A stretch of DNA of 64,000 bases from Escherichia coli (lineage in GTDB: Bacteria > Pseudomonadota > Gammaproteobacteria > Enterobacterales > Enterobacteriaceae). Position 1 is the stretch's first letter, and the number at the start of each line of letters is the position of its first letter. The stretch lies in the NCBI RefSeq assembly GCF_024298765.1, contig NZ_CP101211.1; one strand, given 5' to 3'. This document shows positions 8,105 to 64,000 of this stretch, one piece after another. The notes beneath the pieces were generated by a model. The model had not been told where the DNA came from, did no database searches, and saw only the letters and a list, made by a program, of their open reading frames with translations. Both the position numbers and the translations under genes were made by a program.

Positions 8105-8161
8105 TCCTGTTAAGGGGGAACCCTAACGGGGCTTCTCTTTGAACAAATCGAGGAGCGGAAA

Positions 8162-8539: not shown

Positions 8540-8599
8540 CATTAAACCCACCCTAAAGGGGAGAAATCCCTTCATGGGATTTCTCCTTTTGGAGTCCCC

Positions 8600-10693: not shown

Positions 10694-11049
10694 ATGGGAT
10701 TTGTTATGAAACCTCTGATATTTGTATCTCAGAGTTATCCCATCTTGAATTTAGTGCGTTTTTAAGTACGGATGGTGCTGCTACCATTGCTATAGCAAAA
10801 AACGGAACTAATTTTACTGGACTTATGCAACTGAATAACGACTATTCTTTATTGTTTTATCATGATGGTAAAATAAATATGGAAGGTCTGATTAAACAAA
10901 TGGAATTAAAAGGTTATATGTATCAGGGAGCAATGGGCAATGATGATGTTGTTGCTGAGTTTCCCGGTATTCTTTTAATTTCACCAGAGTAGCTTTAATA
11001 TCAACCCTATCGGGAAATCTTTCCCGTTGGGGAGGGTTTCCCCTTTTTT

Positions 11050-12189
11050 TTGGAGAAACCCATGACTTTAAATACTTCAATGCTTAACAAAGTATCTGCA
11101 AAACAAATCTCTGAGAATTTTGCAAAATCATATCCAGATTTACTGGAAGGTGCAGTTATAACAAAAATTGAAATAAGTGGCTGTCAAGGATCGCGTCGAA
11201 CCGATAAAATCGATTTGTCTTATGATGGAGATGATATTACGGATCAAAAAAGCGTATCTAAAAGCGAAGTACGCTGGATTGACATAAAAGCCCTTAGCTT
11301 CAAAAGTACGATTACCAGCAGAATATCAACTCTTTGCTCACGCTTGTGCATCCGCTATAGCAATATGTGGATTTTACCAGTATCCAGTATGGAAGAGTTT
11401 CTGGAAGGGGCCCAAGAGATTGAACGAGAGTTTCAGGCAGGTATTCAAAACGTTGTAGACAATTATGAGATGCATATTGAGGCTGAAAAAAATAGAAGCC
11501 CAAGAATGTCTTCTTTGATTGATCAGTTGAAATTAACTAAAGATGATTTCATAAAATCCTTTAGATTTAATATTGCTCACTTTATTCCTTTTACGCCTAT
11601 TAGCGTTGAAGGTGATGAAACCCAGGACTACTATCAGGAACAATTGATAACAGATCTGGCAGAAGAAGCAATGAAGGTTTATGAAAAAATTAGCAAAAAT
11701 AACAATTTGCGCTCAAGTACTATTGACCGACTGAAGCAAATGCAAAATAAGATCATTAGCTTCATGTTTATACATAAAGAGGCGGCAGTACTTGCAGAAG
11801 CTATAAAACACATAATGAATAATTTACCTAAAGGTGCCATTTCTGAACCTCGCGACGTTGCGGTGTTACAGCAGTGGTTTTATTTCATGAGTGATGCTTC
11901 AATGTTAAAGCGTATTATTTCAGGAGAGCAAAAGGTTACTGACTGGTTGGAATCTATTACCAGATCATTTAATCAAAGCTCACAAACAGAACCGAACGCG
12001 CTACAGAACACAGGTATTGAAGCTATTTTAGATTCAACAAATGTGTTCCAGGTTGAACCTGTCGTAGAGAACGATATAAATAACAGCACGTTTTCAAACA
12101 CTGATCCTGTAGCTGAACCTGAGAAATCAGTTTCGCAACAGGAAGACAATGTTGAAAATGGTTTTGATATCGAGCTCAAAGGCTGGTAA
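11050..12189 (+). CDS. Hypothetical protein
   Basis: 379-aa ORF between the AAA+ and vWA genes; hairpin/T-run upstream and downstream. Confidence 0.35.
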   Translation: MEKPMTLNTSMLNKVSAKQISENFAKSYPDLLEGAVITKIEISGCQGSRRTDKIDLSYDGDDITDQKSVSKSEVRWIDIKALSFKSTITSRISTLCSRLCIRYSNMWILPVSSMEEFLEGAQEIEREFQAGIQNVVDNYEMHIEAEKNRSPRMSSLIDQLKLTKDDFIKSFRFNIAHFIPFTPISVEGDETQDYYQEQLITDLAEEAMKVYEKISKNNNLRSSTIDRLKQMQNKIISFMFIHKEAAVLAEAIKHIMNNLPKGAISEPRDVAVLQQWFYFMSDASMLKRIISGEQKVTDWLESITRSFNQSSQTEPNALQNTGIEAILDSTNVFQVEPVVENDINNSTFSNTDPVAEPEKSVSQQEDNVENGFDIELKGW

Positions 12190-12266
12190 CTGTTTGCTTT
12201 ATTAAAAACCCCAGATGGGTACTTCACCATCTGGGTGAGTACCCCTTTTTTATAAAGAGGTATTCT

Positions 12267-14279: not shown

Positions 14280-14350
14280 TAAACTCTACCCAATCGGGGC
14301 AAAAGGCCCCGGTGGGTCTTTTTGCTCCATGAAGGAATAAGGAGCAAAAT

Positions 14351-15996: not shown

Positions 15997-16188
15997 CGCT
16001 TTCCTTCGTGATAATTACCTGCCTTTAAGGTCTTTTCACGGCTGAGATGCTTGCTCAGTTAAATAAATGTGCGGTACTACTGGCTATGGTCGGTTGTATG
16101 ACATGGTTATTCCATAAACTATTAAAACCCATAACGGGAGTATTACCGTTATGGTGATGCTCGTCGTTTTACATCGGAGAGCATTTTA

Positions 16189-16710: not shown

Positions 16711-16788
16711 TTGATTGCTAATTGATTTACATATTTTCCCTGATGGCCAACCTGCATCAGGGAGGCCTCAATAACGAATGGAGGCTGT

Positions 16789-17667
16789 ATGAAGTTAGCT
16801 ACGGACCTGGTAAAAGCTATTTTGATTAGAAATGGCGTTGAACCAGTAAATATAAGCGAATCATCTAAGTTATCTTTGAAACAACCACTGACAGAACTTA
16901 AATTCAGTTTATATTTGCGAACTGAGCATTTATCTCACTTCCTACCCGGTTATGTTTATTCTATAAAAGAATGTCCACTGTCATATGACATCGGGATCGA
17001 AATTCAGAAAATCTTCGAAAGTTTACATTTGTTAAACGAAGAATTTGAATCCCTCGGTTTTGTTTCTGTATGGATAGAAATGCATCAAAGCATTTTTGAA
17101 CAAAGTCGGTTTAAGAAAAGTAACTTTACTTTTCGGGAGGAAGAGGTCGAGCTTGCTAAAGGGCTTGTTTGTTCTCACAATTCACAAATAAGTAATGCGG
17201 CTTATTTCTGGCTTCAGCACTTTGAGGAGTTTATGATTTATGTTCGTAATAAGCTTATCGACCTCTTTCGAGAGGCCTATGACCTGATCCTTGGAATGCA
17301 GCAAGTATTTTTCATTCGGGAAAAGGAAGAGCTGTTGAAAACTATAAGTTATGGCGATGAGCTGTATGAGGTGAAATTCATGGCGGCTGAGCTTTACTCT
17401 ATCGAACAGAACTTAAAGTGTTCTGAATCGATAAGTACAAAATCTCAAGCTTCGGCATATATTAACCGCATCCGTGAGTTTGTGCGTTCGGGGTGGAGGC
17501 AGGGCTATATAGTCTGCCATCATAAGCGAAGTAATCAAATTTCATCATTGTCATTACCGATGTACTTGAAAGATACGTCAGGCCGAAGTGCTCGAAAGCG
17601 AGTAAAACGTCTTATATCTTCTACAGTTTGTGGTAGAAATAAAGATTTAGGTCTTACAGATTTTTAA
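16789..17667 (+). CDS. Hypothetical protein, member of tandem paralog array
   Basis: 292-aa ORF; shared N-terminal pattern (h-x-x-h-L-x-x-x-G) with neighbours; hairpin CCCTGATG..CATCAGGG upstream. Confidence 0.35.
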   Translation: MKLATDLVKAILIRNGVEPVNISESSKLSLKQPLTELKFSLYLRTEHLSHFLPGYVYSIKECPLSYDIGIEIQKIFESLHLLNEEFESLGFVSVWIEMHQSIFEQSRFKKSNFTFREEEVELAKGLVCSHNSQISNAAYFWLQHFEEFMIYVRNKLIDLFREAYDLILGMQQVFFIREKEELLKTISYGDELYEVKFMAAELYSIEQNLKCSESISTKSQASAYINRIREFVRSGWRQGYIVCHHKRSNQISSLSLPMYLKDTSGRSARKRVKRLISSTVCGRNKDLGLTDF

Positions 17668-17737
17668 TTAAATTATACCCATGTGGGGATCACACCCCAT
17701 ATGGGAGTGATCCCTTTTTTTATTGAGAGAGGATCAC

Positions 17738-18493
17738 ATGAAAATTATCGAAAAAATCATTAATGCCTTTTTGGTTGTTCAACATAAAAAAATACAGGTT
17801 AAAAACATTACATTTTTAGACAATGGGCAGGGCATGTTCTCTGGTATGTCTTTTGATGCTGATGTTTCACTGGAGTTTATGTATGAATCAGCAAAAGCAT
17901 ATAGTTCTTGTTTCTGTGATATTCCCTTTCCAGGTTTTGAAGATGCAAATCTGGAGGAAATTACGAAATTTCAATTAGATGCTCTGAAGCAAAGAAAGAA
18001 TCATTCTTTCTTTGTTAACCATTTGAGGTTTCCTATAGTTTTAAGGGAAGGGTGCAAAATCGAAAGAGGAGAAGTCTATTCAATTTCGAATTGCACTTAT
18101 AATAAAGAAAGATTGCAGTATCTTTTTTCTCAGGATATTTACGGTAAGTTGTATAATTCCTTAGAGAAAGAATTAAGCTCGTTTTTCTCATTTATCAATG
18201 TTGAGGTGCACGAGTTGTTAAAAGATGCTGTATGCTTTGCATTAAAAATCCTGAATAAGATATCTTTGGATACACCTGAAAGACTTATTAAAGCTTTTAA
18301 TTATCGTGACTGGTATTGTAGTTACGATGTTGAGCTTTTTAGGAAAGGCTTACCTGGTCATATTCTGGAAGAGCTCATTGCTCCAGATATCTTACTTTCA
18401 GACCTTAACGGTTGTAGAAAAATACTTAGAAATGCAAAACGATTTCTAAATGGACATACACAAACCAATTGTGTTTATATTAAATATGAATGA
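17738..18493 (+). CDS. Hypothetical protein, possible paralog-array member
   Basis: ATG preceded by RBS gagagagga (track gives TTG start at 17723); hairpin plus T-run immediately upstream. Confidence 0.35.
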   Translation: MKIIEKIINAFLVVQHKKIQVKNITFLDNGQGMFSGMSFDADVSLEFMYESAKAYSSCFCDIPFPGFEDANLEEITKFQLDALKQRKNHSFFVNHLRFPIVLREGCKIERGEVYSISNCTYNKERLQYLFSQDIYGKLYNSLEKELSSFFSFINVEVHELLKDAVCFALKILNKISLDTPERLIKAFNYRDWYCSYDVELFRKGLPGHILEELIAPDILLSDLNGCRKILRNAKRFLNGHTQTNCVYIKYE

Positions 18494-18741
18494 TGGTTGG
18501 GGCCTGTTGATACCTCACACTCAGCTAAGTTGATGTCTGACAAAGAAATTAATAACCGAAGTGACTTGAAGAATTTTTCAAAGGTCTTTTTCAAAGAGTG
18601 TTTAAGTTCTGGTAAGTCGGAATATGAAAACCATCTTAGTGAAAAAGAACATGCGCTTCGCTATAATTATTAATTAAAATTATTTTCTCCCATAGGGATT
18701 TCTCCCTATGGGAGAAATCCCTCTATTAAGAGGGTATTGAA

Positions 18742-19662
18742 ATGAATGCTATACAAAAGTTAGTTGAATCTATTCTTGTTAAAATGGGTTTTGTTGGCGC
18801 TGTAGTGGAAAATATATATTTGGATTCAAAACCATTTCGGCATATTCGATTTGTGGCTGATATTCCAGTAATATCTTTTCTACCTCATTTGGTGAAATAT
18901 CTTAAGGGTGCAGACCATCTTTACAGTGGTAACGATGATTTGCATCCTCTTTTCATTTATTTTTCCGAAGCGGCTACATTAAAAGCAGGTCCTGTAAATC
19001 TCGCGAACTTTCGTTTTGAAGTTTCTATAGCTTCAACTCATTTACGACTGGTCTCAGAGCAGCCTGATTTGCTTTTCAAAGGATTTAACCGGGATAATCT
19101 AGAATACGTTTATTACCGCTCAGATTTGGCCTCTAAGGATCTTATACTAGGCCTTGTTGAACACGGTTCTCCTTTCATAAAACATCTACATGGACTTATA
19201 CAAAAGCGAATTTTAAACGAGTTCTCTCTGATTTTTTCTGTTCTTGAAAAGATTTTAGAAAGCGCGAAGCCACAAATTCTTGCTTGCTTCCATAGTGTTG
19301 ATTATGAAATGAACGTAAAAATAATAGCCGAAGCTATACCTGAAACTGTATCTAATCAGATAGTCACATCTGATTATATAGTTAATTCTATATCAGATGC
19401 GGACAAGTTTATAAATCATGTTCGTCGCTATTTAGCAGGCAGGGTAATGAAGAGGCGGATATACGCTGAATTAGATGTTTGTGAAGAAACATCAAGTATT
19501 TCACTAGTGAACTTAGGATGCTTTACGTCTCCTCTGCTCGTTACGGAATATCAAATGTTTAAGCCACACTCTTCAGGGTTATATCGAAAAGCTATAAACA
19601 ACTCCTTAAAACAGTTCAAACCAGAAATGCATGTACCTTCTGAAGAACTCTTTTATAATTAA
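18742..19662 (+). CDS. Hypothetical protein, paralog-array member
   Basis: 306-aa ORF; nested perfect palindromes directly upstream. Confidence 0.35.
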   Translation: MNAIQKLVESILVKMGFVGAVVENIYLDSKPFRHIRFVADIPVISFLPHLVKYLKGADHLYSGNDDLHPLFIYFSEAATLKAGPVNLANFRFEVSIASTHLRLVSEQPDLLFKGFNRDNLEYVYYRSDLASKDLILGLVEHGSPFIKHLHGLIQKRILNEFSLIFSVLEKILESAKPQILACFHSVDYEMNVKIIAEAIPETVSNQIVTSDYIVNSISDADKFINHVRRYLAGRVMKRRIYAELDVCEETSSISLVNLGCFTSPLLVTEYQMFKPHSSGLYRKAINNSLKQFKPEMHVPSEELFYN

Positions 19663-19728
19663 TCTAACCCATCCGGGAACCTGCTTCCCGGTGGGAAGCA
19701 CTTCCTTTTTAGTCATGAGGTAGTGTAA

Positions 19729-20667
19729 ATGTTTAAAGAATCTGACCACGTGGAATTTGTTAGTGCCTTTCTTTATCAAAATTTAGGCCTTAATGTTTCC
19801 GCTGACGATATAACCGTTCAATTATCTGATACTTCGTTCGACAAAGTAACCTTTGATTACGATGTAGATATCGATAATTTAAATTGTATGTTGGATCTCT
19901 ACATATCTGAGCTAATAAAGCACAACGCATCTTACTCCGATTCTATTCTTTTGAAACAAAAAATAATTTATTTTCTTGGAGTATTTAAGAATTTCGGATT
20001 TTTTACGTTTGATATTCGCGGATATAGTAATACTTTAAGCCCAGTTAAAGTTATTGATATTGTTTCAATGATTATTAATGACTGTGAAGAGTTATCTAAA
20101 GCTAATTCTTCTACTGATGCTATAAGAAATCTTTATCTCGATAAAATGAAGGTGGATGGGAAAGTGTTAGTTGCGAAATTTGCACTTAAACAGTTTTTTC
20201 ATTCCGACTTTGGTGACTTTATCTCATTTGTCGAGAAAAGAATTACAGATTGTCTTAATGAAACTTTAAGGATTATCAAAGCTGTTGAACATGGCTTTGT
20301 ACGTGTAGGGCAGCATAAGATTAATCGCCGTATTAATGATGACTTAAAGTTATGCATTGATTTCAATACTGATGATTATCCGGCAAATATGCCAGATATA
20401 TATATTAAGTTTAACGATACATTTGATGGGAACGGGGCGTTATATTGTGACAATGATGCCCTCATATCCCTCTATACCGATGTTGCTTCAATTATCAATG
20501 TGCCGGTGATGATGGAAGTAAGATTGATCAATAAAAGAGGGCGTGTTGTCTGTGATTCTTCGCATTCAACTTACGTATCTCTCGAAAGTAATGACCGATA
20601 CAGAGTAACTGATCGCACATTACTAATAACTGAAGCTTTTGACGATTTTCGTAACGCGTCTCAATGA
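19729..20667 (+). CDS. Hypothetical protein, paralog-array member (intact sister of the IS1-split gene)
   Basis: 312 aa; N- and C-terminal blocks align with the 20833 gene (VLVAKFALKQFFHSDF vs VMIARFALQQFWDTHF); near-identical RBS gaggtagtgtaaatg. Confidence 0.4.
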   Translation: MFKESDHVEFVSAFLYQNLGLNVSADDITVQLSDTSFDKVTFDYDVDIDNLNCMLDLYISELIKHNASYSDSILLKQKIIYFLGVFKNFGFFTFDIRGYSNTLSPVKVIDIVSMIINDCEELSKANSSTDAIRNLYLDKMKVDGKVLVAKFALKQFFHSDFGDFISFVEKRITDCLNETLRIIKAVEHGFVRVGQHKINRRINDDLKLCIDFNTDDYPANMPDIYIKFNDTFDGNGALYCDNDALISLYTDVASIINVPVMMEVRLINKRGRVVCDSSHSTYVSLESNDRYRVTDRTLLITEAFDDFRNASQ

Positions 20668-21443
20668 TCCTTTTGCTTCAGTCCAAAAAAGTAACTTTGG
20701 TTGGCTGAAGACACTTGTCTATGACAATGTAAAATCTGTCGCTGGCATCTTCTTTTAGCTTAACCAAATTTTTATCTAACCCAGTGGGGAAGTCGCTTCC
20801 CTTCTGGGGCACTTCCTCTCAAATTCGAGGTAGTGTATATGACACATTCATCTGATGATAAAAACTATGTCCGAGCAGTTCTGAGTTATCTTGGCATAGA
20901 TTTTGATGAGGCGGATATAGTATTAAGTGTTTGCCATTGTCAAAGTGACGAGCTTTCTTTTACCTGTAATATCAAAGCTATTGAACTCAAGAATGCTGTT
21001 GATTTATATGTCGATAGTATCTCTGAGAATGAAATAGAAGCTTTAAACAGAGAATCTTTAAAATCGCGACTCTGTTACTTTCTTGAGGTGTTTGACGCAG
21101 TCTCTGGTCAGTACCTTGAAATTTCAGGAAAACACTTTGCAACTAGTCGTTTTGAATATGATGATGTTTGTAGTGAAGTTCTTAGCATGTCTAATGATGT
21201 TTCTCAGTCGAAAGGTTATGACCGGGATGAATATAACAGACTGATGCAGGTTGATGGTCAGGTTATGATTGCCCGTTTTGCTTTGCAACAGTTCTGGGAT
21301 ACTCATTTTATTGGACTAATAACATTTGTATCTGAGTCTATAACATCGAGCCTCTATAAAGCTTATGAAACTTTTAGTGATATTAGTTTGGCTTGCTATA
21401 AACTGAGTGAATATTCTTATTCACGCTCGGTAATGACTCCAAC

Positions 21444-21947
21444 TTATTGATAGTGTTTTATGTTCAGATAATGCCCGATGACTTTGTCATGCAGCTCCAC
21501 CGATTTTGAGAACGACAGCGACTTCCGTCCCAGCCGTGCCAGGTGCTGCCTCAGATTCAGGTTATGCCGCTCAATTCGCTGCGTATATCGCTTGCTGATT
21601 ACGTGCAGCTTTCCCTTCAGGCGGGATTCATACAGCGGCCAGCCATCCGTCATCCATATCACCACGTCAAAGGGTGACAGCAGGCTCATAAGACGCCCCA
21701 GCGTCGCCATAGTGCGTTCACCGAATACGTGCGCAACAACCGTCTTCCGGAGCCTGTCATACGCGTAAAACAGCCAGCGCTGGCGCGATTTAGCCCCGAC
21801 GTATCCCCACTGTTCGTCCATTTCCGCGCAGACGATGACGTCACTGCCCGGCTGTATGCGCGAGGTTACCGACTGCGGCCTGAGTTTTTTAAATGGCGGA
21901 AAATCGTGTTGAGGCCAACGCCCATAATGCGGGCGGTTGCCCGGCAT
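21444..21947 (-). CDS. insB: IS1 InsB (transposase made by frameshift fusion with InsA)
   Basis: 167-aa ORF matching IS1 InsB as recalled. Confidence 0.8.
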
Positions 21948-22141
21948 CCAACGCCATTCATGGCCATATCAATGATTTTCTGGTGCGTACCGGGTTGAGA
22001 AGCGGTGTAAGTGAACTGCAGTTGCCATGTTTTACGGCAGTGAGAGCAGAGATAGCGCTGATGTCCGGCGGTGCTTTTGCCGTTACGCACCACCCCGTCA
22101 GTAGCTGAACAGGAGGGACAGCTGATAGAAACAGAAGCCAC
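21866..22141 (-). CDS. insA: IS1 InsA
   Basis: 91-aa [46 protein letters not shown] matches IS1 InsA as recalled. Confidence 0.8.
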
Positions 22142-22611
22142 TGGAGCACCTCAAAAACACCATCATACACTAAATCAGTAAGTTGGCAGCATCACCTTCA
22201 CGCTCTATCAACAGTGAATTGACCCTTAATATTTCACTTAAAGAAAATGACTTCTGTGAGGACCTATCTGATTGCTATATGGAAGATGAGGCTTTACCTT
22301 CTGGTAGGGTAATTTCTCGACGCAACAATGACTCCATAATAAGTATTTATGAGAGCTATGCTGCGGCTTCTTATATTCCGATGATTGCATCTTTGGAAGT
22401 CGTTGATGAATACGGCGAAGTGGTTACTGACCTCTGCCATACCGTTTATGTTTCAGAGTTAACCGGTGGGCGGATTAAAATCCACGACCGTAATGACTTA
22501 GTATCTGAAGTTTTCGATAACCTAAGAAATTTAAATCTTGCAGTTGGAGATTCAGTTTCACAAGCTGCTTGATTCTTTCCCTGATTTTGATTTTTTCTCA
22601 CATACTCTTAT

Positions 22612-22637
22612 GGCACGGTTTCCGTGCCTTTTTTTTG
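22612..22637 (+). terminator. Intrinsic terminator after the paralog array
   Basis: GGCACGG-ttt-CCGTGCC hairpin followed by TTTTTTTT. Confidence 0.6.
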
Positions 22638-22835
22638 CCTCGCTTACAAGCGTCTACTCCTCTTCTACCTATCCCACCTTACATCACCACTTAAAATCTA
22701 TCTTTCTAATTCCATTATCCTTTTCGTAGCCTCTAATGCTCTGGTATGAACATACTCTTTAAACTCAAAAAAGTGCTATTAACGAAAAAAAATCCCTAAA
22801 GAGATTTGTATACTGTTCTCAACCAAGGAGAGCTC

Positions 22836-23111
22836 ATGAATGAACTAAAATCCAAAAACGAGAACAGTACCAAAAGCAACTTTCCCCCGGTTGATAATCA
22901 GTTTTGCTTTTACCATGTTGATTTCAGCATAGAACGACTACTTTCTACGGCCGAGGATCTCCAGCTTGAGTACATCTTCCAGAAACCTGGAAGTGAAGTA
23001 AGAAAGGATTTGGTTGAGCGATTCGAACGTGGAGAGCGCTTTGTTACAGCTTCACACTGTGACAATTTCTGTGAAATCCTTGGTTGTCAAGGCCATCAGG
23101 AAAATGCATAA
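22836..23111 (+). CDS. Hypothetical protein
   Basis: ATG with strong RBS aaggagag (track ORF begins at an upstream TTG, 22806). Confidence 0.35.
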   Translation: MNELKSKNENSTKSNFPPVDNQFCFYHVDFSIERLLSTAEDLQLEYIFQKPGSEVRKDLVERFERGERFVTASHCDNFCEILGCQGHQENA

Positions 23112-29119: not shown

Positions 29120-31709
<2,590 letters not shown>

Positions 31710-31714
31710 CTGAT

Positions 31715-32314
31715 ATTGAATATGAAATCAGTCAGGTGCAGCTCGGGCGACGTAAAACAACATACAGTGAGTGCATTGAAAGCCTGATCATTGATGAGAC
31801 CAGTTCCCGGGAATGGCTATATCATCCATTAATGCATGAACTTGAATCTGAACCTCTTCAGGAGTATCGGGGACGGGAGCCTTCAGAGGAAGGGCCTCTT
31901 CTTCAGCGCCTTGCTGACTGTAAGATGAAATTGCCTGATATCCTTCCGGGCAGTCATAACGCGCTAGTCAGGTTACAGCAGGATACGATTGTATGTCTGT
32001 GTCGGTTAACGGTTCGGGCTTATGACATCGCTCAGACCGATGAATTTCCTTTGTTCCTTCGCTATTTCAGGTTGCACTGCCTGGAAAACAGCGAACATGT
32101 CAGTTACGAAAGACTGATCTGCTGGCAGGAAATGATTTCAAAAACCCAGGAAGGCCAGTCCTTGACACAAAACGAACTTGAATATCTTCATGAGATTGTC
32201 CGCATCGCCTTTTACAATCACCGGCTTAACAATGTCAGTATTTCAGATGTTAAAAACCATGACACTGGAAAGAAGAGCGGCAGGGTAGAGTCACAAAACT
32301 ATTCACTTTTATAA
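31715..32314 (+). pseudogene. 3' part of the IS100-interrupted CoiA-like gene
   Basis: In-frame continuation (..DLPD|IEYEISQVQLGRR..) of the 29243 ORF after excising the IS. Confidence 0.5.
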
Positions 32315-32480
32315 ATAACTTGGGCTTTGCGCATTAAACCCTTGCCGCAGGCGGTGTACCGCATATCCGGCACAGACAGTCAGTTTTTTCTGGCAGCTTA
32401 AATTTGACACTGCTTAATATAGTGATTCATTAAACAGGTTCAGTATGCTGCCAGAACGTTTTAGTCGTAATGGGCGTCCG

Positions 32481-52432: not shown

Positions 52433-52994
52433 TACGCACAGTTTTCGCATGGTTAAAGGAGCTCTACAGCAGCTTAATACTGTAGAGCCTTTGTTCACTG
52501 GAAATCGTACAGGGAGGAGCATATGGACCGCATCAAGTACCTGAAATGGATAGCTGAAGAATCACCAACTGATGATGAAATCGACAACTACGATAGTATC
52601 ATTAGTCGGGGCGCAGAAAGGGCCGAGAAGGTTCAGTTGTCTTTAAGACGTTAATATACGGGAGTTTAAATGTTCGCAGAAATCAAAGATAATTATTCGT
52701 TAGGTGGATAAAGAAAGGTTGCCATTACCAGCTTTCGACGAGTCGAAAATAAAAACCTTATTTATAGTGACAGGGAGTATGAGCTGACGCTTGCCAATGG
52801 AACAATAATTAAAAATGTACTTAGAAAAGAAGAGTGGGAACTGTTAGAAAGCAATTCAATTAAGGTTATATTATAACGAAAATATATTTACAGTTTTGGA
52901 TAGGTTTCAAACGAGTCCGGACATTTGTACCTGAAGTATCTGACATTACAGTTAAGTGACGATTATGCCAGCACGTCTGTTGCTGGCAGCTTAG

Positions 52995-53276
52995 CTATCG
53001 GTCTAAAAGCTGATCCATTAATAATTCTTCGTAAAGCCCAGAGGTATCGGGCTTTATTACAATATCCGTTATTTCGAAGCGTTCAAGTACAAATTGCAGA
53101 TATTCCGGAGTAACGTAGTAGGGATCAGGTTCAGCCAGATTAGTATAGAGTGGGTCTTCTGCTGCATTAATGTCATAATCAATGCACATATGAAACCACT
53201 GCAAAGGTGGATCCCAGCCTAACATCACCTGAACAATTCCCTGATTGCTTTTCACCTCATACCAGTGCTGGCTCAT
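52995..53276 (-). CDS. Hypothetical small protein
   Basis: 93-aa ORF. Confidence 0.25.
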   Translation of the reverse strand: MSQHWYEVKSNQGIVQVMLGWDPPLQWFHMCIDYDINAAEDPLYTNLAEPDPYYVTPEYLQFVLERFEITDIVIKPDTSGLYEELLMDQLLDR

Positions 53277-53325
53277 ACTTAGTCCTTAAGAAAATTTGTC
53301 ATCGGAAAATAACACGAAGCCTGCA

Positions 53326-53517
53326 TCATCGAGGCGCATAACCTTCTTCCCTTAACGCCTGTTGTAATTTATCAACTGCGCTTTTCATTACCCAGGCTTC
53401 TTCGTCACTCACAGCACAACCACGTAGATCGCTCCAGCTCAGACGTTTAACAAATTGAGCAAGGGCCATAGTTTCGTTCTCATCAAGCCGCAAACTCAGT
53501 GTCTCAATACCTTCCAC
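53326..53517 (-). CDS. Hypothetical small protein
   Basis: 63-aa ORF. Confidence 0.2.
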   Translation of the reverse strand: MEGIETLSLRLDENETMALAQFVKRLSWSDLRGCAVSDEEAWVMKSAVDKLQQALREEGYAPR

Positions 53518-53608
53518 AATCTAACCTCCCTTATAATGAAAAATGGCGCTTTACTTCTGACCAGATGCCGAAGCCTTGAATGCAGCCGGAACTGTCGTTG
53601 TTTCTACT

Positions 53609-53980
53609 TTACAGAAATGGAATTAAAAAGTGGTGATGCTGGGCACGTTTCTTTTCCAGCCGGGGTTTAAGCCAGAGCTGAAACTCATTCAACTTCTCAG
53701 CAGCCAAAACCGCTTCAACGGGGAAAACTTTATATTTACCCTGTTGCTGAGGTTCACCCAGCCATCGCCTGATGGCTCCGTCAGTCCATAAACGAGTCTC
53801 TTTTAGCCTAGTTACAGTGACCCATTTTCTGGACCATTCATCAAATTGTCGCTGGCGATCCCGATAACGTTGTTCTTCCTGCTGCCGAAGCCACTCGCGA
53901 TCAACAGCAAATTTTCGGTATCCAACAAAGAGCCCTTGTACTTTGGCCATGTCATATTCCGGTTGCTTAGAGTTACTCAT
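53609..53980 (-). CDS. Hypothetical protein
   Basis: 123-aa ORF. Confidence 0.3.
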   Translation of the reverse strand: MSNSKQPEYDMAKVQGLFVGYRKFAVDREWLRQQEEQRYRDRQRQFDEWSRKWVTVTRLKETRLWTDGAIRRWLGEPQQQGKYKVFPVEAVLAAEKLNEFQLWLKPRLEKKRAQHHHFLIPFL

Positions 53981-61848: not shown

Positions 61849-62668
61849 GGCACTGTTGCAAATAGTCGGTGGTGATAAACTTATCATCCCCTTTTGCTGA
61901 TGGAGCTGCACATGAACCCATTCAAAGGCCGGCATTTTCAGCGTGACATCATTCTGTGGGCCGTACGCTGGTACTGCAAATACGGCATCAGTTACCGTGA
62001 GCTGCAGGAGATGCTGGCTGAACGCGGAGTGAATGTCGATCACTCCACGATTTACCGCTGGGTTCAGCGTTATGCGCCTGAAATGGAAAAACGGCTGCGC
62101 TGGTACTGGCGTAACCCTTCCGATCTTTGCCCGTGGCACATGGATGAAACCTACGTGAAGGTCAATGGCCGCTGGGCGTATCTGTACCGGGCCGTCGACA
62201 GCCGGGGCCGCACTGTCGATTTTTATCTCTCCTCCCGTCGTAACAGCAAAGCTGCATACCGGTTTCTGGGTAAAATCCTCAACAACGTGAAGAAGTGGCA
62301 GATCCCGCGATTCATCAACACGGATAAAGCGCCCGCCTATGGTCGCGCGCTTGCTCTGCTCAAACGCGAAGGCCGGTGCCCGTCTGACGTTGAACACCGA
62401 CAGATTAAGTACCGGAACAACGTGATTGAATGCGATCATGGCAAACTGAAACGGATAATCGGCGCCACGCTGGGATTTAAATCCATGAAGACGGCTTACG
62501 CCACCATCAAAGGTATTGAGGTGATGCGTGCACTACGCAAAGGCCAGGCCTCAGCATTTTATTATGGTGATCCCCTGGGCGAAATGCGCCTGGTAAGCAG
62601 AGTTTTTGAAATGTAAGGCCTTTGAATAAGACAAAAGGCTGCCTCATCGCTAACTTTGCAACAGTGCC
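61849..62668 (+). mobile_element. IS26 (IS6 family), 820 bp
   Basis: 14-bp terminal inverted repeats GGCACTGTTGCAAA / TTTGCAACAGTGCC at both ends; tnp26 inside. Confidence 0.9.
61912..62616 (+). CDS. tnpA: IS26 transposase Tnp26
   Basis: 234 aa from [21 protein letters not shown], matching IS26 transposase as recalled. Confidence 0.9.
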
Positions 62669-62909
62669 TTTCACCCTCGATGCCAACCACGTCAGGTGGC
62701 AAATTTTCGACATTAACCGCGACGATGCTAAATTTCATGGAGAAGTGCGTGGGTGAAATAGCCGGTCGTCAGTCATAAAGGGCAGGGGAGTACCGTTGGC
62801 CCGGCGTTCGATAGTACCGTCCGGATACTGCCAGATATCGGCGTCCAGGGAGATGTCCTGAAGCGCGGTGTCCGGAATTTCAGGTTTGTGTCTCTACAAA
62901 GACTAACTA

Positions 62910-63725
62910 TCAGAAAAACTCATCGAGCATCAAATGAAACTGCAATTTATTCATATCAGGATTATCAATACCATATTTTTGAAAAAGCCGTTTCTGTAAT
63001 GAAGGAGAAAATTCACCGAGGCAGTTCCATAGGATGGCAAGATCCTGGTATCGGTCTGCGATTCCGACTCGTCCAACATCAATACAACCTATTAATTTCC
63101 CCTCGTCAAAAATAAGGTTATCAAGTGAGAAATCACCATGAGTGACGACTGAATCCGGTGAGAATGGCAAAAGCTTATGCATTTCTTTCCAGACTTGTTC
63201 AACAGGCCAGCCATTACGCTCGTCATCAAAATCACTCGCATCAACCAAACCGTTATTCATTCGTGATTGCGCCTGAGCGAGACGAAATACGCGATCGCTG
63301 TTAAAAGGACAATTACTAACAGGAATCGAATGCAACCGGCGCAGGAACGCTGCCAGCGCATCAACAATATTTTCACCTGAATCAGGATATTCTTCTAATA
63401 CCTGGAATGCTGTTTTCCCGGGGAGCGCAGTGGTGAGTAACCATGCATCATCAGGAGTACGGATAAAATGCTTGATGGTCGGAAGAGGCATAAATGCCGT
63501 CAGCCAGTTTAGTCTGACCATCTCATCTGTAACATCATTGGCAACGCTACCTTTGCCATGTTTCAGAAACAACTCTGGCGCATCGGGCTTCCCATACAAT
63601 CGATAGATTGTCGCACCTGATTGCCCGACATTATCGCGAGCCCATTTATACCCATATAAATCAGCATCCAGGTTGGAATTTAATCGCGGCCTCGAGCAAG
63701 ACGTTTCCCGTTGAATATGGCTCAT
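62910..63725 (-). CDS. aph(3')-I: Aminoglycoside 3'-phosphotransferase APH(3')-I (kanamycin/neomycin resistance)
   Basis: 271 aa MSHIQRETSCSRPRLNS..HGDFSLDNLIFDEGKLIGCIDVGRVGIADRYQDLAILWNCLGEFSP matches APH(3')-Ia-type enzyme as recalled. Confidence 0.9.
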   Translation of the reverse strand: MSHIQRETSCSRPRLNSNLDADLYGYKWARDNVGQSGATIYRLYGKPDAPELFLKHGKGSVANDVTDEMVRLNWLTAFMPLPTIKHFIRTPDDAWLLTTALPGKTAFQVLEEYPDSGENIVDALAAFLRRLHSIPVSNCPFNSDRVFRLAQAQSRMNNGLVDASDFDDERNGWPVEQVWKEMHKLLPFSPDSVVTHGDFSLDNLIFDEGKLIGCIDVGRVGIADRYQDLAILWNCLGEFSPSLQKRLFQKYGIDNPDMNKLQFHLMLDEFF

Positions 63726-63848
63726 AACACCCCTTGTATTACTGTTTATGTAAGCAGACAGTTTTATTGTTCATGATGATATATTTTTATCTTGTGCAAT
63801 GTAACATCAGAGATTTTGAGACACAACGTGGATTTGTTGAATAAATCG

Positions 63849-64000
63849 GGCACTGTTGCAAAGTTAGCGATGAGGCAGCCTTTTGTCTTATTCAAAGGCC
63901 TTACATTTCAAAAACTCTGCTTACCAGGCGCATTTCGCCCAGGGGATCACCATAATAAAATGCTGAGGCCTGGCCTTTGCGTAGTGCACGCATCACCTCA
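63849..64000 (-). mobile_element. Second IS26 copy, inverted relative to the first, running off the window end
   Basis: Starts with GGCACTGTTGCAAA and continues as the reverse complement of the 3' end of the first IS26 copy (62570-62668). Confidence 0.85.

Follow-up and report, generated by a model that had tools for sequence, protein, structure and literature searches.

The 64-kb window analysed here, meaning the whole stretch of 64,000 nucleotides, carries a single complete IS1 element within a gene of no known function. It is practically certain, in our assessment, that a recent and simple IS1 transposition struck the last gene of a plus-strand block in the backbone of an IncHI2 plasmid. 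The 318-aa gene was very probably inactivated as a result, judging from a structural model of its product. An earlier note on this DNA had read the insertion as a knock-out rather than an ancient junction. A perfect target site duplication (TSD) and a base-for-base empty site in IncHI2 relatives uphold that reading. The features of the insertion are as follows.

20839-21428, plus strand: 5' part of the interrupted gene, codons 1-196 and the first two bases of codon 197, including the left TSD copy; identical to WP_000149830.1 in p965-MDR
20839-21450, plus strand: present-day open reading frame (ORF) of 203 aa by translation, with 197 native residues, then VMTPTY from the right end of IS1 and a stop
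21420-21428: left TSD copy, TTCACGCTC, located by string search
21429-22196, minus strand: complete IS1 of 768 bp, boundaries from string search
21429-21451, minus strand: right inverted repeat (IRR) of IS1, matching IRL at 18 of 23 positions
21444-21947, minus strand: insB' frame, open, 167 aa from its first ATG; Pfam DDE_Tnp_IS1, 2.3e-78
21866-22141, minus strand: insA, 91 aa, GTG start; Pfam Zn_ribbon_InsA, 3e-21, and HTH_Tnp_IS1, 1.7e-30
21884-21893, minus strand: A6C -1 frameshift site, TTTAAAAAAC, at IS position 304
22174-22196, minus strand: left inverted repeat (IRL) of IS1, from terminal comparison with IRR
22197-22205: right TSD copy, TTCACGCTC, located by string search
22206-22572, plus strand: 3' part of the gene, residues 198-318 and the stop, severed from the start codon; from excision and comparison with p965-MDR
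22612-22636, plus strand: terminator-like hairpin GGCACGG-TTT-CCGTGCC (22612-22628) followed by eight T residues, 40 nt past the stop codon

The element shows every trait of the IS1 family: a length of about 768 bp, imperfect inverted repeats of about 23 bp, insA and insB' overlapping in the -1 frame, the A6C site and a 9-bp TSD. Its termini read GGTAATGACTCC at the left (IRR) and GGCAGCATCACC at the right (IRL). The completeness claimed in the earlier note was thus borne out over 21429-22196, in the inverted repeats, both ORFs and the frameshift site. The sequence is 100% identical to copies labelled 'IS1-like element IS1B family transposase' in many E. coli chromosomes and plasmids. It differs in nothing from an IS1B-type IS1, and only the insertion site is particular. 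IS1 was present, at 80% query coverage or more, in 4950 of 5426 complete E. coli genomes. With insA, the A6C site and insB' all intact, the copy looks functional.

In IS1, a -1 frameshift at the A6C site fuses InsA to InsB' and so produces the InsAB' transposase. By this established mechanism, InsAB' would have bound both terminal inverted repeats and made a 9-bp staggered cut in the target at TTCACGCTC. Repair would then have duplicated the 9 bp, giving the direct repeats.

On re-reading, the 9-mers flanking the element proved perfectly identical, as claimed. The sequence TTCACGCTC occurs exactly twice in the window, each copy abutting one end of IS1, and a given pair of flanking 9-mers would match by chance with a probability of 4^-9, or about 4e-6. 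Excision in silico also gave the exact rejoining of the frame that had been proposed. Joining 20833-21428 to 22206-22572 yields 963 nt, a number divisible by three, in one open frame that runs to the stop codon at 22570-22572. Excision restores a 318-aa ORF, WP_000149830.1, a hypothetical protein annotated in p965-MDR (NZ_CP091641.1), a Salmonella plasmid typed IncHI2A, MOBH and MPF_F. One detail of the earlier note had to be corrected. It had placed the start at a GTG at 20833, whilst the annotation of WP_000149830.1 puts the true start at the ATG at 20839, 6 nt downstream. When IS1 and one copy of the repeat were removed from 20700-22700, the remaining sequence was identical to p965-MDR 52700-53923 at 1224 of 1224 positions. 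IS1 prefers AT-rich targets. In line with this preference, the gene has a G+C content of 37% and the surroundings of the site 32%, compared with 54% for IS1.

The window and p965-MDR are colinear and about 99.98% identical across the 64 kb, including the trh, ter and tus region of this typed IncHI2/IncHI2A plasmid. They differ structurally in two places only: IS1 is present here, and an IS21 is present in p965-MDR and missing from the window. This colinearity rules out an IS1-mediated rearrangement. The IS21 of p965-MDR, about 2.1 kb with istA and istB, lies at a site corresponding to window 53636-53641, where a 6-base overlap of the alignment blocks suggests an IS21 target duplication.

Colinearity with the p965-MDR annotation also places other mobile elements in the window. 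At about 29270-32320 an IS100 (IS21-like) splits a CoiA-family gene. From about 61.85 kb (about 61850-64000) an IS26 - aph(3')-Ia - IS26 unit lies beside a truncated gene of the H-NS family.

The earlier note had suggested seeking the uninterrupted allele in relatives, and sequence databases supplied it in abundance. A 400-bp empty-site query across the junction matched 1119 PLSDB plasmids from Escherichia, Salmonella, Enterobacter, Klebsiella and other genera. The site was uninterrupted, at 99% identity or more, in 1116 of them, a count that concerns the junction only and that point lesions such as nonsense alleles would still pass. IS1 at the same position was absent from all PLSDB plasmids and complete E. 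coli genomes searched. Two PLSDB records that seemingly covered the full query carry their IS1 elsewhere, in the upstream leader (CP100014) and 2.5 kb downstream (NZ_CP131999). The truncated 203-aa product is deposited as UTP15830.1 / WP_254825077.1, from a single E. coli plasmid contig of 274,018 bp in GenBank. A 318-aa cluster representative of the intact allele is found on at least 1000 contigs; it differs from the restored protein of the window at one residue, K/T in CNI[K/T]AIELKN. On these sequence comparisons the insertion is recent, simple and a singleton. The knock-out is already present in GenBank and is a textbook IS1 event, without novelty in the element itself.

The gene has a Shine-Dalgarno sequence, GAGGT, 8 nt upstream of the ATG at 20839, and the target was cut within codons 194-197. 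Translation from this ATG now proceeds through 197 native codons and six codons of the IS1 end before the stop. Residues 198-318, the C-terminal beta-rich half of the predicted fold, are lost. The 318-aa representative of the intact allele was modelled with AlphaFold2 (pLDDT 88.8, pTM 0.82, 19 homologs); the model shows an alpha/beta N-terminal part, a 45-residue helix at 146-190 and a beta-rich C-terminal part at 193-310. In this model the break falls inside the strand at 193-197, directly past the long helix. Arg196, at the break, is among the 11 columns that do not vary across the family alignment. Because the whole C-terminal part is lost, we infer a loss of function, and the allele is probably null or at best crippled. 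The N-terminal fragment of 197 residues could retain partial activity.

The next gene downstream starts at 22836, about 260 nt on. Given this distance and the terminator-like hairpin 40 nt downstream of the interrupted gene, no polar effect on downstream genes would be expected.

The interrupted gene belongs to a tandem array of ORFs, the other members of which are listed here.

16789-17667, plus strand: ORF of 292 aa, by position in the array
17738-18493, plus strand: ORF of 251 aa, by position in the array
18742-19662, plus strand: ORF of 306 aa, by position in the array
19729-20667, plus strand: adjacent upstream paralog of 312 aa (BLASTP 27% identity over 309 columns, E 5e-38)

The restored protein and the product of the adjacent ORF can be aligned over their full length, as the earlier note had claimed in calling the two colinear. 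Its description of the gene as the last paralog of an array held only in part. The adjacent ORF is a clear paralog, whereas the three further upstream are only remote relatives of the pair, at 66-77% profile probability and with a matching order of predicted secondary structure. BLASTP similarity of the 292-, 251- and 306-aa ORFs to the 318/312 pair was not significant. Profile comparisons (hhalign) used orthologs from three divergent plasmid loci, L006, L008 and L009. With a probability of 97.7% they linked the 306-aa group to the 251-aa group, and with 96.3% the 292-aa group to both combined. The 318/312 group was matched to the 292-aa group with 66% probability and to the three groups together with 77% (E 2e-5, 223 colinear columns); E-values for this link ranged from 2e-5 to 6e-5. 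In an AlphaFold2 model of the 292-aa protein (pLDDT 72), helices and strands succeed one another as they do in the 318-aa model, the long central helix included. The five ORFs at 16789-22572 are thus likely to form a single, strongly diverged family.

The family of the target gene is small. The target gene and its neighbours had no Pfam, NCBIfam or PADLOC match, and searches of the PDB and BFVD structure libraries yielded no relative of the target family. When 1.84 billion cluster representatives (50% identity clusters) were searched exhaustively with HMMER, 31 matched at E <= 0.001, and all homologs with genomic context examined were in IncHI-like plasmid loci. The gene block adjoins Tra2 (trhU, trhN). 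A leading-region or anti-defence role for it was entertained and set aside; IncHI plasmids do not figure in the literature consulted on this. Each locus has two to five array genes of about 300 aa, set between a conserved gene of 173-185 aa and one of 70-92 aa: five in the window (16789-22572), five in L006 (2256-7299), four in L008 (3723-7718) and two in L009 (7106-8867). Array orthologs are only 20-50% identical. Judging from these sequences and gene counts, the array is fast-evolving and has evidently expanded and contracted.

A conserved leader of two hairpins precedes 11 genes in the window. All 11 copies are plus-strand, lying between 8.1 and 20.9 kb and within about 60 nt of the ATG. 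It is common to every array gene and to several genes upstream of the array, and is also present in L006, L008 and L009. The leader-bearing block spans about 13 kb (window 8.1-22.6 kb) and ends with the 318-aa gene, which is its last cistron and the last to have a leader. Each instance listed below lies directly upstream of an ATG.

8106-8156, plus strand: two-hairpin leader
8550-8595, plus strand: two-hairpin leader
11005-11061, plus strand: two-hairpin leader
12210-12265, plus strand: two-hairpin leader
14288-14349, plus strand: two-hairpin leader
16129-16185, plus strand: two-hairpin leader
16737-16786, plus strand: two-hairpin leader
17678-17737, plus strand: two-hairpin leader
18684-18734, plus strand: two-hairpin leader
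19668-19726, plus strand: two-hairpin leader
20780-20836, plus strand: two-hairpin leader of the interrupted gene

Hairpin 1 is palindromic and rich in G+C, starting CCCA..GGG. Immediately after it comes hairpin 2, whose 3' arm includes the Shine-Dalgarno sequence; in the interrupted gene this is the GAGGT. The leader of that gene has a minimum free energy of -32.4 kcal/mol, a z-score of -5.8 against dinucleotide shuffles and a score of 60.6 bits with the covariance model (R1). Folding-energy z-scores from such shuffles lay between -2.5 and -8.2 for all 20 array leaders examined from four plasmids. In p965-MDR, the 11 leaders are among the 13 most stable of 48 annotated genes, in the stretch up to about window 49.5 kb.

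The covariance model, seeded on 10 leaders, found 12 further non-seed instances on the plus strand, all at gene starts. Within the window, at E <= 1, it found nothing outside the block except weak reverse-strand echoes of hairpin 1. For the 16 best hits, in an alignment that is fitted to the model and leans towards structure by construction, paired cells made up 71.9%, compared with 64.4 +/- 1.4 in shuffles (reached by 0 of 500). In the same alignment, the covariation score was 0.307, compared with 0.183 in shuffles (0 of 500) and at most 0.174 in slid controls, and compensatory changes were seen in 15 of 21 pairs. The covariance model was needed here: RNAalifold on plain MAFFT alignments of the leaders, which are not in structural register, missed both hairpins.

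No leader matched Rfam at gathering thresholds. Hairpin 1 at 16129-16154, in the leader of the 173-aa gene, resembles positions 3-29 of RF03070 (ssNA-helicase) at 23.4 bits against a gathering threshold of 41.5, and its L006 ortholog does likewise. This motif has been described near helicase genes, likely in mobile-element contexts. The hairpin matches it almost base for base, with the loop AGUAUUA included, but only 27 of the 49 model positions are matched and the other ten leaders in the window have no match at all. Conjugation of IncHI plasmids is thermosensitive. An RNA thermometer was considered and found unsupported, with the predicted accessibility of the Shine-Dalgarno sequence flat from 25 to 42 C. 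Segments of GGGAA and CTTCC recur in the leaders, and it is conceivable, as speculation, that they pair alternatively and free the Shine-Dalgarno sequence. We raise tentatively, as a possibility we would not favour at present, that the leader is an undescribed cis-acting RNA (or single-stranded DNA) element. Such an element would control translation or processing of a fast-evolving, IncHI-specific array that has no fold match in the libraries searched.

Lesions in the array genes were also found in other plasmids. In the 318-aa gene, codon 202 is changed from TTG to TAG in L011 and L012, and codon 210 from GAA to TAA in L013 and L014, whose SNP backgrounds differ. An IS3-family element interrupts the gene in L015 at about window 21205-21216, and in CP100014 (L002) an IS1 lies in the 5' leader hairpin at about window 20799-20809. 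NZ_OZ261675.1 and NZ_CP072971.1 also look interrupted at this gene. The 312-aa paralog is shortened too in L013 (1233-1853, an Enterobacter plasmid contig, GCA_034861285.1), where it is called at 206 aa. The second array member of the window has an in-frame TGA at 18491-18493, where CP100014 and L011 have TGG (Trp). Past this codon, homology to orthologs of 308-312 aa runs on in frame for 59 more codons, to 18670. Thus the 251-aa ORF is a truncated 311-aa gene (17738-18673), a state common to p965-MDR. The lesions show that the array genes are dispensable under some conditions.

These lesions raise the alternative that inactivation was selected, with loss of the gene benefiting the plasmid or its host and IS1 being one of several routes to it. 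The 318-aa gene has been hit independently in other plasmids, by two nonsense mutations, an IS3-family insertion and the leader IS1, and in this lineage a nonsense codon is present in the second array member as well. The intact allele is nevertheless kept almost everywhere. The junction is uninterrupted in 1116 of 1119 PLSDB plasmids (with point lesions passing this 400-bp, 99% identity test), the intact representative occurs on 1000 contigs or more, and even divergent IncHI-like plasmids have conserved orthologs of it. A few lesions in thousands of sequenced plasmids would be expected of a dispensable but usually retained gene. We therefore regard selected inactivation as unlikely, and infer that the insertion is selectively neutral.

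Two further accounts would deny that a simple insertion took place. IS1 often mediates adjacent deletions and cointegrates. The junction could accordingly be old or complex (an IS1-mediated deletion, an inversion or a cointegrate end), or the two gene parts could always have been separate genes. We found no support for this: the two repeats match perfectly, empty-site plasmids have the flanks contiguous and 100% identical, and both sides are colinear with p965-MDR. The reading is refuted, and its probability is close to negligible. Misplacement of an IS1 copy during assembly is scarcely more credible. Most hosts have several copies of IS1, and repeats are well known to cause misassembly, but a misplaced repeat would not yield a precise 9-bp duplication together with exact restoration of the frame. 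The truncated product is moreover in GenBank from the 274,018-bp plasmid contig, though this is probably the same record as the window. A recent, simple transposition of IS1 into the last gene of the block is thus strongly preferred, and no feature of the sequence speaks against it.

This insertion resembles classical inactivations on resistance plasmids by IS1, IS26 and IS3-family elements, in which an ORF is hit, its product is truncated, a TSD is left and the intact allele persists in relatives. It differs in its target: the gene family is uncharacterised and restricted to IncHI-like plasmids, which leaves no phenotype to assign. As a singleton IS1 in a non-essential backbone gene of a widespread IncHI2 resistance plasmid, the insertion itself matters little, and the allele is useful at most as a strain marker or a natural knock-out. 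The target is a small, plasmid-restricted and rapidly diverging tandem gene family, and in work on it the IS1, nonsense and IS3-family alleles provide natural mutants for comparison. If the reading of the leader as a regulatory element proves true, the IS1 allele would be a ready-made natural mutant of the last member of the array.
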